This document shows positions 1,763 through 31,572 of a stretch of 32,093 nucleotides of DNA, piece by piece. The notes below the pieces were generated by a model, which was given only the letters and a program-made list of their open reading frames with translations, did not search any database and was not told where the DNA came from. The translations under genes and the position numbers were made by a program. Source of the stretch: a virus (taxonomy: Duplodnaviria; Heunggongvirae; Uroviricota; Caudoviricetes); IMG/VR virus record IMGVR_UViG_2698536480_000001, positions 1 through 32,093 of that record; one strand, given 5' to 3'. Each line of letters opens with the position of its first letter. Position 1 is the stretch's first letter.

Positions 1763-1792
1763 AGATAAAAAATCGCCCTCACACTGGAGGGC
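1763..1792 (-). terminator. putative intrinsic terminator in the early-left operon (tL-like)
   Basis: On the - strand GCCCTC-CAGTGT-GAGGGC hairpin (plus 1775-1792) followed by a U-run (plus 1764-1770 is AAAAAAT). Confidence 0.45.
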
Positions 1793-2399: not shown

Positions 2400-2705
2400 T
2401 CAATCGTAATAAGCTGGAATTGATTTTCCGCGTTGCTTCTGGCGGCCTGAACAAGTCACACCCATTTCACTGCGTGGCTTGCGGTAGTAAATACGGTTCT
2501 GTTTACGCTCGACTTCTTCTGCCTTCTTGCAGCGAAGGCTTCCGAGTGATGCTGCTTTATCTGCTCTGACGCAACCAGAGAGCTTTAGCGCAATTTTTCG
2601 CGCCAGTCGCTGCTCTTGCATTGCCTGTTCACGTTGAGCCTGTCTGCGTGCTCTGCGGCGATTTCTGGCGTTATCGTCAGCCAGTTATGTAATGACTACT
2701 GTCAT
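2400..2705 (-). pseudogene. N: antitermination protein N (phi21/P22-type), interrupted by an in-frame TAA at codon 7
   Basis: C-terminal part (SGCVRADKAASLGSLRCKKAEEVERKQNRIYY...GVTCSGRQK) resembles phi21 N. Strong RBS GGAGG plus ATG at 2705 gives MTVVIT then TAA (plus 2685-2687), then an in-frame arginine-rich motif NARNRRRARRQAQREQA with no ATG/GTG/TTG before it. Confidence 0.6.
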
Positions 2706-2812
2706 GTTGACCTCCGATGATTGACTTTGGCGGTGACGCGCCGGGTGCTTATCTTCCGGTTGCCGTCGTGCAGCTGCACTTCACGTCACCCCAAAGCCAA
2801 CTACTCTTTGGT

Positions 2813-2864
2813 TCCCGCATTTCGGCGGGACAATCCCATCAATGTTAAAGAGCCTGCCAATCTG
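2813..2864 (-). promoter_or_regulatory. nutL (boxA plus boxB hairpin)
   Basis: On the - strand GCTCTTTAACA (boxA, plus 2853-2864) followed by hairpin UCCCGC-CGAAAU-GCGGGA (plus 2813-2830); the same boxA and boxB recur downstream of cro. Confidence 0.55.
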
Positions 2865-2899
2865 TTCCGTTTGGCTTCCAGCGTCATGCTGATGGCTAA

Positions 2900-2986
2900 A
2901 GAATACTGTAGGTATTTTATTGTGTAAATACCCAAGGTATTTATTTTTGATGAAATAATGATAAGCAAATGAATACAAAGGATATT
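2900..2986 (-). promoter_or_regulatory. OL operators and pL promoter
   Basis: Three 15-bp sites of the form AATAC-N5-GTATT/ATATT at 2902-2916, 2927-2941 and 2972-2986; on the - strand -35 TTTACA (plus 2923-2928), 17-bp spacer, -10 TATTCT (plus 2900-2905). Confidence 0.5.
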
Positions 2987-4204: not shown

Positions 4205-4262
4205 ACTAAAAATACCCTGAGTATTGATTGCTTTGAATACCTGTAGTATTCTTTGTTCATGG
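4205..4262 (+). promoter_or_regulatory. OR operators with PR promoter
   Basis: Operator sites AATACCCTGAGTATT (4211-4225) and AATACCTGTAGTATT (4236-4250) matching the OL sites; PR -35 TTGATT (4224-4229), 17-bp spacer, -10 TATTCT (4247-4252). Confidence 0.5.
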
Positions 4263-4482: not shown

Positions 4483-4526
4483 CGCTCTTTAACAGTCATG
4501 GTCCTCATTCCCGCCGAAATGCGGGA
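4483..4526 (+). promoter_or_regulatory. nutR (boxA CGCTCTTTAACA plus boxB hairpin)
   Basis: CGCTCTTTAACA at 4483-4494 and hairpin TCCCGC-CGAAAT-GCGGGA at 4509-4526, identical to the nutL boxB; followed by inverted repeat GCGCAT-N6-ATGCGC (tR1 region). Confidence 0.6.
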
Positions 4527-4584
4527 ATACAACGCGCATAAGTTGATGCGCATAACTTCTTATTAGTTAAGGAAATACTTACAT

Positions 4585-4863
4585 ATGCAACTTACAAGTA
4601 CTCGCAAGAAAGCGAATGCAATTACAAGCAACATCCTGAATCGAATTGCTGTACGTGGTCAGCGAAAGGTTGCCGACGCGTTAGGGATTAATGAATCGCA
4701 AATTTCGCGATGGAAAGACAGCTTCATCCCCAAAATGGGAATGCTTCTTGCTGTTCTTGAATGGGGTGTTGAAGACGAGGAGTTGGCGGAACTGGCTAAG
4801 AAAGTAGCCAGAATGCTGACAAAAGAAAAAGCCCCGAAGAACGGCGAATTCTTCGAGGCCTGA
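4585..4863 (+). CDS. cII: CII transcriptional activator
   Basis: 92 aa; segment QISRWKDSFIPKMGMLLAVLEWGVED matches lambda CII (QISRWKRDWIPKFSMLLAVLEWGV). Confidence 0.85.
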   Translation: MQLTSTRKKANAITSNILNRIAVRGQRKVADALGINESQISRWKDSFIPKMGMLLAVLEWGVEDEELAELAKKVARMLTKEKAPKNGEFFEA

Positions 4864-4897: not shown

Positions 4898-5059
4898 ATG
4901 ACAAAACGTCGTAAGAAATACCAGGAAAAAGAAGAGATTCGACACCCTGATTCACCTGAGGGATTAGTGGTAGCCGCAGCAAATAACAGGGCGTTCGCAG
5001 AGCGCCTTGTTGGTGTTTACAGACTAGCCAAAGCAGGAGTGAAGCATGGGCGTCGTTAA
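4898..5059 (+). CDS. hypothetical small basic protein (53 aa)
   Basis: ATG at 4898 preceded by AGGAG; fills the cII-to-O gap; below the ORF-track size cut-off, so weakly supported. Confidence 0.3.
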   Translation: MTKRRKKYQEKEEIRHPDSPEGLVVAAANNRAFAERLVGVYRLAKAGVKHGRR

Positions 5060-5108
5060 GTTAGCTGATTACAGGCATAACCCTGTACAACATCAGGAGG
5101 CATCCAGT

Positions 5109-5936
5109 ATGGGGTATGTCTCTATACACCGCCAGTTTATGGACAGCAGGCTCTATAAGGACTCTCAGGCAGTACATCTTTGGCTTCACTTAATCCTCAA
5201 GGCTAATCACGAATCTACTGTCGTCAATACGGATATCGGGCCGATAACTGTTGATCGCGGTCAGATGATAACTGGACGCCCGTCGCTGGTCAGAGAAACA
5301 TTCATCCCCGACAACAAAGTTCGGAGCTTATTACGGACTTTTGAGTCGAAAGGGATGCTTAATATTTGCTCGATGGGGAAGAAATTTAGCCTGTTTACAA
5401 TCGTTAAATATGACGATTTTCAGGCAAAAAATTGTCCAACGGTTGTCCAACGGTTGTCCAACGCAAACACAAGTAATGGCGCGGCTCTCAGCGGAGATTG
5501 TCCAACGGTTGTCCAACGGTTGTCCATAAACAATAATATAAATAATATCTCTAATACTGACGTATTAGAGAGTGCCACAGCAGACAAAAAGTCTGACAAG
5601 AAAAAACCTCCCGTCAGCTGTCAGGATGTTGTCGATGCTTACCACGAAATCCTTCCTGAAGCGCCAAGAATCCGCGCACTGAATGACAAGCGTAAAAACC
5701 AGATCCGAACGTTCTGGCGCAAAGCCGGAGTGATAACCCGCCAGCTTGACGGGCATGGGTTCACGATGCAGGACTGGAGAAATTATTTGAGCTACGTAGG
5801 CGAAAATTGCCGATGGATGTTCGAAGAGCGTCCAAACCATCAACGCGGAACCGTCTGGCACAAAAAGGGATTTGATTTCCTGCTTAACGACAATACCTAC
5901 CTGAAAGTTCGTGAGGGTGAACACGATGACCGATAA
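5109..5936 (+). CDS. replication initiator protein (O-type), with origin iterons inside the coding sequence
   Basis: ATG at 5109 with SD AGGAGG 8 nt upstream (track start 5046 is less likely); gene contains the iteron array and ends overlapping the helicase gene, as in lambda O and P22 gene 18. Confidence 0.8.
   Translation: MGYVSIHRQFMDSRLYKDSQAVHLWLHLILKANHESTVVNTDIGPITVDRGQMITGRPSLVRETFIPDNKVRSLLRTFESKGMLNICSMGKKFSLFTIVKYDDFQAKNCPTVVQRLSNANTSNGAALSGDCPTVVQRLSINNNINNISNTDVLESATADKKSDKKKPPVSCQDVVDAYHEILPEAPRIRALNDKRKNQIRTFWRKAGVITRQLDGHGFTMQDWRNYLSYVGENCRWMFEERPNHQRGTVWHKKGFDFLLNDNTYLKVREGEHDDR
5432..5531. repeat. origin of replication: six tandem 11-bp iterons (TTGTCCAACGG) in two triplets plus an AT-rich tract
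   Basis: TTGTCCAACGG repeated at 5432, 5443, 5454 and 5499, 5510, 5521 (last copies degenerate), followed by AT-rich ATAAACAATAATATAAATAATATCT. Confidence 0.7.
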
Positions 5937-7362: not shown

Positions 7363-7437
7363 TGACCATCTACATCACTGAGCTAATAACAGGCCTGCTG
7401 GTAATCGCAGGCCTTTTTATTTGGGGGAGAGTAAATC

Positions 7438-10648: not shown

Positions 10649-10833
10649 ACGCCACAATTCAAACGATACCAGAGCTTCTTATCCAGACACGAGGCAATCA
10701 GACCGAAGTGGCGAGGATGCTTTCCTGCGCAAGAGGAACAGTGCTCAAGTACAACCGAGACAACAAAGGCGAGCGTCACGTAATAGTTAACGGCGTCCTG
10801 ATGGTCAAACAGGGCAAGAGGGGAAGACCATGA
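10645..10833 (+). CDS. ninH: NinH-like protein
   Basis: 62 aa; TIPELLIQTRGNQTEVARMLSCARGTVLKY parallels lambda NinH (TIPDMLVEAYGNQTEVARRLKCSRGTVRKY). Confidence 0.7.
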   Translation: MNATIQTIPELLIQTRGNQTEVARMLSCARGTVLKYNRDNKGERHVIVNGVLMVKQGKRGRP

Positions 10834-11453
10834 GACTCGAAAGCGTAGCTAAATTTCATTCGCCAAAAAGCCCGATGATGAGCGACTCACCACGGGCTAC
10901 GGCTTCTGACTCTCTTTCCGGTACTGATGTGATGGCTGCTATGGGGATGGCGCAATCACAAGCCGGATTCGGAATGGCTGCATTCTGCGGTAAGCATGAA
11001 CTCAGCCAGAACGACAAACAAAAGGCTATCAACTATCTGATGCAATTTGCACACAAGGTATCGGGGAAATACCGTGGTGTGGCAAAGCTTGAAGGAAATA
11101 CTAAGGCAAAGGTACTGCAAGTTCTCGCAACATTCGCTTATGCGGATTATTGCCATAGTGCCGCGACGCCGGGCGCAAGATGCAGAGATTGCCACGGTAC
11201 AGGCCGTGCGGTTGATATAGCAAAAACAGAGCAGTGGGGGAGAGTTGTCGAGAAAGAGTGCGGAAGATGCAAAGGCGTCGGCTATTCAAGAATGCCAGCA
11301 AGCGCTGCATATCGCGCTGTAACGATGCTAATCCCAAACCTTACTCAACCCACCTGGTCACGCACTGTTAAGCCACTGTATGACGCTCTGGTGGTGCAAT
11401 GCCACAAAGAAGAGTCAATCGCAGACAACATTTTGAATGCGGTCACACGTTAG
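10830..11453 (+). CDS. Q: late-gene antiterminator Q (lambda Q-type)
   Basis: 207 aa, essentially identical over its length to lambda Q as recalled (MRLESVAKFHSPKSPMMSDSPRATASDSLSG...); followed by PR'. Confidence 0.93.
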   Translation: MRLESVAKFHSPKSPMMSDSPRATASDSLSGTDVMAAMGMAQSQAGFGMAAFCGKHELSQNDKQKAINYLMQFAHKVSGKYRGVAKLEGNTKAKVLQVLATFAYADYCHSAATPGARCRDCHGTGRAVDIAKTEQWGRVVEKECGRCKGVGYSRMPASAAYRAVTMLIPNLTQPTWSRTVKPLYDALVVQCHKEESIADNILNAVTR

Positions 11454-11495: not shown

Positions 11496-11524
11496 TTGAC
11501 TTTTTGAATAAAGTTGGGTAAATT
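11496..11524 (+). promoter_or_regulatory. late promoter PR' with qut region
   Basis: -35 TTGACT (11496-11501), 17-bp spacer, -10 TAAATT (11519-11524); context TTGACTTTTTGAATAAAGTTGGGTAAATTTGACTCAACGATGG is lambda PR'-like. Confidence 0.65.
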
Positions 11525-11560
11525 TGACTCAACGATGGATAAATGCACTCGTTAAATAAA

Positions 11561-11589
11561 GCCCTGAGTTAATAGCTCAGGGCTTTTTG
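11561..11589 (+). terminator. intrinsic terminator downstream of PR' (tR'-like)
   Basis: Hairpin GCCCTGAG-TTAATAG-CTCAGGGC followed by TTTTTG, about 55-60 nt downstream of the PR' start. Confidence 0.6.
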
Positions 11590-30625: not shown

Positions 30626-30693
30626 AGTTGAAGCCCCAACTGCGGGAACAGTCAGGGCTTCGGTATCAACAAATCGGATTAGGAAATATTGAC

Positions 30694-31572
30694 ATGAAAA
30701 GTATAGCAAAGGCACAAAACGATTTCACCATCTTCAAATTCGGCGACAGTGAAATCCGCGTCATCAACAAATGCGGTGAGCCGTGGTTTGTAGCAAAAGA
30801 TGTTTGTGATGCTTTAACCCTGACTAACTCACGCAAGGCGCTTACTGCACTTGATGACGATGAAAAGGGAGTAACTTTAAGTTACACCCTTGGTGGTGAG
30901 CAGAATCTAAGCATTGTTAGCGAATCAGGTATGTATACATTGGTTCTGCGCTGCCGCGATGCTGTCAATAAAGGTTCGGTCCCGCACAAATTCCGCAAGT
31001 GGGTAACAGCAGAAGTTCTACCTTCAATTCGCAAACATGGCGAGTATGTGAAAGGCAAGAAAACCACTGTTGAGGAAAGAACGGCGCTACGCGATGCAGT
31101 AAACATGCTGGTAGGAAAGAAAGGACTTCGCTATGACGATGCATACAATATGGTTCATCAGCGTTTTGGTATTGACAGCATTGATGAACTTTCAATTGAA
31201 CAAATCCCGCTGGCCGTAGAGTACATCCACAGGGTAGTGCTTGAAGGCGAGTTTATCGGCAAACAAGAGAAGAAAGCAAACGAGCTTTCTGCAAAAGAAG
31301 CAAACAGCCTTGTATGGCTATGGGATTATGCTAACCGTTCACAGGCATTATTCTGCGAACTGTATCCGGCATTAAAACAAATTCAATCGAACTATTCCGG
31401 CAGATGCTACGACTACGGTCATGAATTCTCGTATGTTATCGGAATGGCGAGAGACGTTTTAATCAATCACGCACGAGATGTTGATATCAATGAGCCAGAC
31501 GGACCAACGAATCTTTCCGCATGGATGAGACTTAAGAATAAAGAATTACCTCCTTCAGTACATAACTACTGA
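30694..31572 (+). CDS. ant: antirepressor Ant
   Basis: 292 aa from the ATG at 30694 (SD AGGA; track start 30628 abuts the arc stop); N-terminal Bro-N/KilA-N-type domain ([14 protein letters not shown]); position downstream of arc as in P22. Confidence 0.85.

Follow-up and report, generated by a model that had tools for sequence, protein, structure and literature searches.

The closest described relatives of the N antiterminator gene considered here are those of the phages HK620 (AAK28866.1), HF4s (QOI58142.1), N7 and CUS-3, in which N is the first gene after pL and nutL. The window, by which we mean the whole stretch of 32,093 nucleotides that was analysed, carries N at the same position and with the same motif (NARNRRRARRQAQ), and shares with the four phages the Shine-Dalgarno sequence, the start codon and the first 64 codons. 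The difference lies at codon 7, which is TAT in these phages and TAA in the window. HK620 N is further distinguished by its C-terminal third, which comes from a different mosaic module, and by its length of 90 aa as against 101 aa in the window. Phage 21 N (UMO75464.1) resembles the window N in gene position and over residues 37-97, the body that interacts with NusA and RNAP, but its N-terminal motif and its boxB are completely unlike those of the window, so that its nut specificity is different.

Gene content and order show the window to be the internal part, 32 kb long, of an E. coli prophage of the HK620-like (P22-like, Lederbergvirus) type. It begins within RecT, which is cut by the window start, and continues with kil and ral, N, a 129-aa membrane protein and cI (238 aa). 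These are followed by cro, cII, an O-like protein, a DnaB-like helicase, the nin region, Q and the lysis genes, and then by the terminase subunits, portal, scaffold, P22-type coat, gp4, gp10 and needle. Ejection proteins, arc/mnt/ant and the start of the tailspike complete the order. A P22-type morphogenetic module (including terL and the tailspike head-binding domain) and a lambdoid early region, in canonical order, place the window in Lederbergvirus. The best match was an E. coli prophage adjoining intS/argW, with 97.3% identity over 87% of 25 kb, and identity to phages HK620, IME10 and HZ41 was 95.8-96.6%. Over the length of the window, none of the complete E. coli genomes or phage records reached 99% identity, and an exact search with the 613-aa ejection protein led to other mosaics. 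A sar RNA, the antisense RNA of P22 immI, was found at the arc/ant junction (Rfam RF00262; 30626-30692, minus strand; 71.6 bits, gathering score 43), so that the prophage has an immI region of the P22 type, with Arc/Mnt and with an antirepressor at 30628-31572. The O-like gene (5046-5936, plus strand) contains two clusters of three 11-bp direct repeats (TTGTCCAACGG) at 5431-5463 and 5497-5529, 66 bp apart. The repeats encode the repeated peptide CPTVVQRLS and are probably the iterons of the replication origin.

The N locus of the window is laid out as follows.

2711 to 2715, minus strand: Shine-Dalgarno sequence GGAGG, 5 nt 5' of the N start; the same in HK620, HK630, HF4s, N7 and CUS-3
2400 to 2705, minus strand: N antiterminator gene, 101 codons plus TGA (2402-2400), interrupted at codon 7
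2685 to 2687, minus strand: ochre TAA, codon 7 of N; TAT (Tyr) in relatives
2682 to 2684, minus strand: CTG (Leu8), adjoining the stop; the sole near-cognate start 5' of the motif, without a properly spaced Shine-Dalgarno sequence
2631 to 2672, minus strand: arginine-rich motif NARNRRRARRQAQR, N codons 12-25, 3' of the stop
2400 to 2621, minus strand: longest canonical ORF remaining in N, with ATG at 2621 and 73 aa; it starts just past the motif and lacks it

Read on the minus strand, GGAGG is followed by the spacer TCAAC (2710-2706), the start codon ATG (2705-2703) and the codons ACA GTA GTC ATT ACA, which together give MTVVIT, and then by TAA at 2687-2685. Past the stop the same frame runs on from CTG GCT GAC GAT AAC through GCC AGA AAT CGC CGC AGA to GCA CGC AGA CAG GCT CAA (LADDNARNRRRARRQAQ), and so into the motif and the N body. 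Neither the sequence nor the ORF list contains an ATG, GTG or TTG in the N frame between the TAA and the arginine-rich motif. The next canonical start is the ATG at 2621, after codons 12-25, and the 73-aa ORF that it opens gave no match in Pfam. The original prediction had described this arrangement, from the GGAGG with its 5-nt spacer to the hexapeptide, the in-frame motif and body past the stop, the missing canonical start ahead of the motif and the downstream ATG that would delete it, and it was borne out in each of these points. The reading frame is thus not continuous from the start through the motif to the C-terminus. As written, the locus is an N gene by descent and, judged by this frame, a pseudogene or null allele.

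When the stop was repaired (TAA to TAT), the resulting 101-aa protein matched PHROG 271, 'anti-termination protein N-like', with E=2.4e-36. Its score against Pfam N_peptide was 19.1 bits, under the curated cut-off of 27.9, and the assignment to the N family is therefore based on PHROGs and BLAST. In tblastn searches of phage records, residues 37-97 were 88.5% identical to phage 21 N, as expected from the phi21-like body proposed earlier, and residues 63-97 were 60% identical to lambda N. HF4s N was 99% identical to the repaired protein over all 101 aa (tblastn). Protein alignment identified residues 1-36 as an HK620-type N-terminal module. N is a three-part mosaic, made of the HK620-type residues 1-36, the phage-21-type residues 37-97 and a tail, QKQRGKSIPAYYD, matching ST64T gp24. 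Relatives that share the N-terminal module exist in 90-, 99- and 101-aa versions with differing C-terminal modules, and the module itself occurs in 494 of 5,426 complete E. coli genomes. The gene has the attributes of a lambdoid N-type antiterminator: it is the first gene of the pL operon, directly 3' of pL and nutL; it is homologous to known N proteins, including the C-terminal body that interacts with RNAP and NusA; and the arginine-rich motif is accompanied by predicted boxA and boxB elements in both early operons.

Codon 7 was compared with its counterpart in related genes. It is TAT (Tyr) in 187 of 187 relatives read directly, including the viable phages HK620, HK630, HF4s, N7 and CUS-3, and in DNA alignment with these five isolated phages the 5' end of N is the same except for TAT in place of TAA. 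The altered base is window position 2685, which is A on the coding strand (T on the plus strand), whereas the relatives have T on the coding strand. A tyrosine at the equivalent position had been named for P22 N in the original prediction, and it is found in HK620, HF4s, CUS-3 and the P22-type gp24 of ST64T (MT-VITYGKS...).

A 71-nt query centred on codon 7 matched 495 records (523 places) among the 5,426 complete E. coli genomes, none at 100% identity, and the same query matched 29 of 50,697 phage records, again none at 100%. The exact TAA-bearing 37-mer had no match in genome_contigs or viral_contigs. When the variable base was set to N, the 37-mer matched 52 metagenome loci, 119 viral loci and 1 genome locus. 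Each of these has T, and once the five phage loci are added, T stands at this base in 177/177 pattern-matching loci. Ten further loci with an identical cI repressor all have a full-length N downstream (90, 99 or 101 aa), and the nine of them that contain the 37-mer pattern all read TAT. Position 21 of the N gene is the only base that is absent from every homolog (up to 173 sequences), and four loci encode exactly the repaired 101-aa N. The TAA is thus no chance pattern: it sets the window apart by one base from a gene that is otherwise strongly conserved.

The comparison also bears on whether the TAA could be a programmed feature conserved in the N family, through recoding or a documented alternative start. 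Functional homologous phages with the same stop, which the original prediction had named as evidence against its reading, were not found at any of the roughly 700 homologous sites. TAA is absent from the 187 relatives read directly, no identical 71-mer exists in the complete E. coli genomes or phage records, and in the viable HK620, HK630, HF4s, N7 and CUS-3 codon 7 is TAT and N is annotated from the same ATG. Programmed recoding is refuted by these comparative data, since no relative has the stop, and the probability left to it is negligible.

The uniqueness of the base has to be weighed in another respect, namely that A at 2685 could be a base-calling or consensus error, the true codon being TAT and N being intact. 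The TAA allele is a singleton among the homologous sites, A at 2685 is the only unique base in the N gene, and the rest of the prophage has no other decay. A gene without secondary decay fits a very recent mutation, and it fits an error equally well. However, the exact product of the 73-aa remnant was looked up in a collection of 153 billion genes and was found on a single contig, Logan ERR1415336_626 (2,724 bp), the only one on which the 73-aa ORF is called as a gene. This contig is 100% identical over 2,723 nt to window 2179/2180-4902, including the TAA. Since Logan assembles independently from raw reads and reproduces the TAA through a different pipeline, an assembly artefact is unlikely as its origin, as far as the two assemblies can tell. 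The contig passes the site unbroken, assembly behaviour that argues against a mixed TAT/TAA read population. Short-read consensus substitution errors outside homopolymers are rare. The ERR1415336 contig may, on the other side, share its isolate or reads with the window, and a systematic error could then recur in both; for this reason a small probability is kept for sequencing error, which we regard as improbable. The earlier proposal of such an error is thus weakened.

The two ends of the contig fall precisely at window 2179 and 4902, which suggests that the sequences flanking this segment are repeated in the ERR1415336 sample. A second lambdoid prophage with the ral-side and cII/O-side modules in common would be one example. 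If such a second prophage exists, it could matter for trans-complementation or for recombinational repair of N.

The targets of N and the elements downstream of them were compared with the HK620 annotation.

2893 to 2928, minus strand: pL promoter, 100% identical to the annotated HK620 pL
2813 to 2854, minus strand: nutL, with boxA GCTCTTTAAC at 2853-2844 and the boxB hairpin TCCCGCCGAAATGCGGGA at 2830-2813; 100% identical to HK620 nutL
1765 to 1792, minus strand: tL2A-like intrinsic terminator, 3' of N and ral in the pL operon; 4 mismatches to HK620 tL2A
4224 to 4259: pR, 100% identical to the HK620 annotation
4483 to 4528, plus strand: nutR, with boxA CGCTCTTTAACA and the boxB hairpin at 4507-4528; 100% identical to HK620 nutR
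4528 to 4534, plus strand: tR1, directly after nutR; 100% identical to HK620
7390 to 7422, plus strand: intrinsic terminator tR2, separating the helicase (P) gene from the nin/Q region, the barrier that has to be overcome by N before Q can be expressed; found in a terminator scan and 100% identical to HK620
10830 to 11453, plus strand: intact gene for a Q-type late antiterminator of 207 aa, which needs readthrough of tR2 to be expressed
11496 to 11531 and 11546 to 11588: pR' and qut, with 1 mismatch each to HK620

The boxB of nutL folds into a 6-bp stem and that of nutR into an 8-bp stem, both stems being of G+C and both carrying the loop CGAAAU. tL2B in the window is near-identical to the HK620 annotation. 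The nut sites and early terminators had been described as intact on first reading, and the identity of nutL, nutR, tR1 and tR2 to HK620, with a near-identical tL2A, agrees with that. A TAG at 4564-4566 (plus strand), between nutR/tR1 and the cII start at 4585, closes the cII frame 5' of its ATG. Twenty-seven related ORFs are open through 4564-4566; the TAG lies in the non-coding leader and leaves the 92-aa cII unaffected.

Lambdoid phages can become N-independent through loss of the terminators that precede Q, as in lambda nin5/byp, and the stop would have no phenotype if N were naturally dispensable in this prophage too. The terminators described above speak against it, since tR1 and a strong intrinsic tR2 are present and 100% identical to those of HK620, and tL-type terminators are present as well. 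N length was surveyed in 184 related N genes that were covered at both ends, and 176 of them are 90, 99 or 101 aa long. Retention of the canonical length in 176/184 loci indicates purifying selection on N, which does not fit a dispensable gene. Dispensability of N is accordingly a very improbable reading.

The remainder of the window was screened for lesions by tblastn with 4,631 ORFs from 178 related loci and by comparison of gene lengths with those of homologs. A total of 111 distinct homologous ORFs extend across the codon-7 stop in N, and inside the real genes of the window there is no further in-frame stop. No other broken gene was found in the 32 kb, and the remaining genes match the lengths of their homologs. 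Apparent stops at 4564 (cII), 31670 (tailspike) and 13165 (GIY-YIG gene) were rejected as lesions, as they lie upstream of the true starts, and the remaining apparent in-frame stops were rejected because they fall in spurious antisense ORFs. Searches of the window for a tRNA gene or suppressor tRNA, and for a second copy of N, found none.

Taken together, these results make it probable that the prophage carries a recent singleton change of Tyr7 to ochre (TAT to TAA) which removes N-dependent antitermination and leaves the prophage non-productive or strongly crippled. Inactivation of N by an ochre mutation of a tyrosine codon was also the leading option of the original prediction. It gains support from TAT in all relatives, from the single T-to-A change on the coding strand, from the lack of a canonical restart before the motif and from nut sites and terminators that are as in the viable HK620. 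Full-length N is not expected to be made, because no canonical start (ATG, GTG or TTG) separates the TAA from the motif. Translation from the strong Shine-Dalgarno sequence and ATG, the only good initiation site, must end after the hexapeptide MTVVIT. The motif with which N has to bind the nutL and nutR boxB hairpins comes only after the stop. At most, traces of an N-terminally shortened N from CUG8, or of an inert, motif-less 73-aa fragment from AUG 2621, would be produced.

The lambda N and P22 gene 24 paradigm, taken together with tR1, tR2 and the tL terminators of the window, leads one to expect that the loss of N function would take effect upon induction. Transcripts from pL would halt at the tL terminators and those from pR at tR1/tR2, little Q would be made and the late operon would stay largely off. 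Some 290 nt of N mRNA would be left untranslated, and Rho-dependent polarity may come on top of this. The prophage would retain its repressor, immunity and lysogenic functions, and a productive burst would need an N of the same boxB specificity supplied in trans.

How complete the loss is depends on the codon that adjoins the stop. Restart at the CUG after the UAA, or occasional readthrough of the UAA, could supply a little N with the motif, sufficient for lytic growth at a lower but genuine level, and the allele would then be leaky, a hypomorph and not a null; we consider this unlikely. In lacI and T4 rIIB, translation is classically known to restart past nonsense codons early in the gene. 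The CTG lies next to the stop and upstream of the motif, and residues 1-7 of N are outside the motif and variable between N types. The GGAGG is, however, 26 nt upstream of the CTG, which has no Shine-Dalgarno sequence at the proper spacing. UAA is the most efficiently terminated of the stop codons, the window has no suppressor tRNA, and the relatives, all with TAT, give no hint of such a route. CUG starts work with about 1-2% (range 0.02-3%) of the efficiency of AUG even when a Shine-Dalgarno sequence is present (10.1101/063800), a figure that allows some initiation. The expected yield is nevertheless at most about 1% of wild type, and trace N from CUG8 is unlikely to restore normal growth. 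The unusual initiation or readthrough considered earlier thus survives only as a low-level leak. In one form of it, for which the chances are equally slim, UAA-CUG would be a termination-reinitiation site yielding a small amount of N without residues 1-7 but with an intact motif, in a naturally attenuated prophage. Spontaneous induction and killing would then be lower, with the lytic cycle still completable.

On the preferred reading, an ochre mutation that inactivates N, the locus should be annotated as an N pseudogene or ochre allele and not as a 73-aa hypothetical protein. The prophage is predicted to be non-inducible or poorly productive despite its complete look, and scoring of 'intactness' by gene content would miss the lesion. 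If real, the allele is a clean example of the first step in prophage inactivation, consisting of one base, without secondary decay and with the targets intact, and one that experiments could readily revert or suppress.

Other disrupted alleles occur in the same N family. Among the IMG/VR and metagenome loci, two (L033 and L115) are frameshifted near codon 31, with a 39-aa product. In two more, N is disrupted after about codon 40 (L121, 55 aa) or has an early stop at codon 84 (L110, 83 aa). A C-terminal frameshift was also noted in L119. These alleles indicate that sporadic inactivation of N in resident prophages recurs, at a level of a few percent. In the HK620 record (AF335538.1, 846-986), the authors note that cIII is shortened by an internal stop in a viable phage, so that some members evidently tolerate small truncations of early genes.

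The window resembles those lambdoid prophages, defective or cryptic, whose regulatory genes are inactivated by point lesions, in that an otherwise complete prophage is disabled by a small change; it differs from them in having one detectable lesion only and no secondary decay. Nonsense mutations in early antiterminators are known from classical work, as lambda Nsus7/Nsus53 and the P22 gene 24 ambers, which were selected in the laboratory. Like them, the window allele has a premature stop and an expected block in delayed-early and, as a result, in late expression, and in both cases the block is, or would be, complementable in trans or suppressible by a suppressor tRNA. Unlike them, it is a natural ochre allele, which affects codon 7 in the HK620-type N of a resident prophage. 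The N ochre is an ordinary knock-out mutation, present in one sample only and involving no new mechanism. The window allele is thus a further instance of the already known class of N/gene 24 nonsense alleles.
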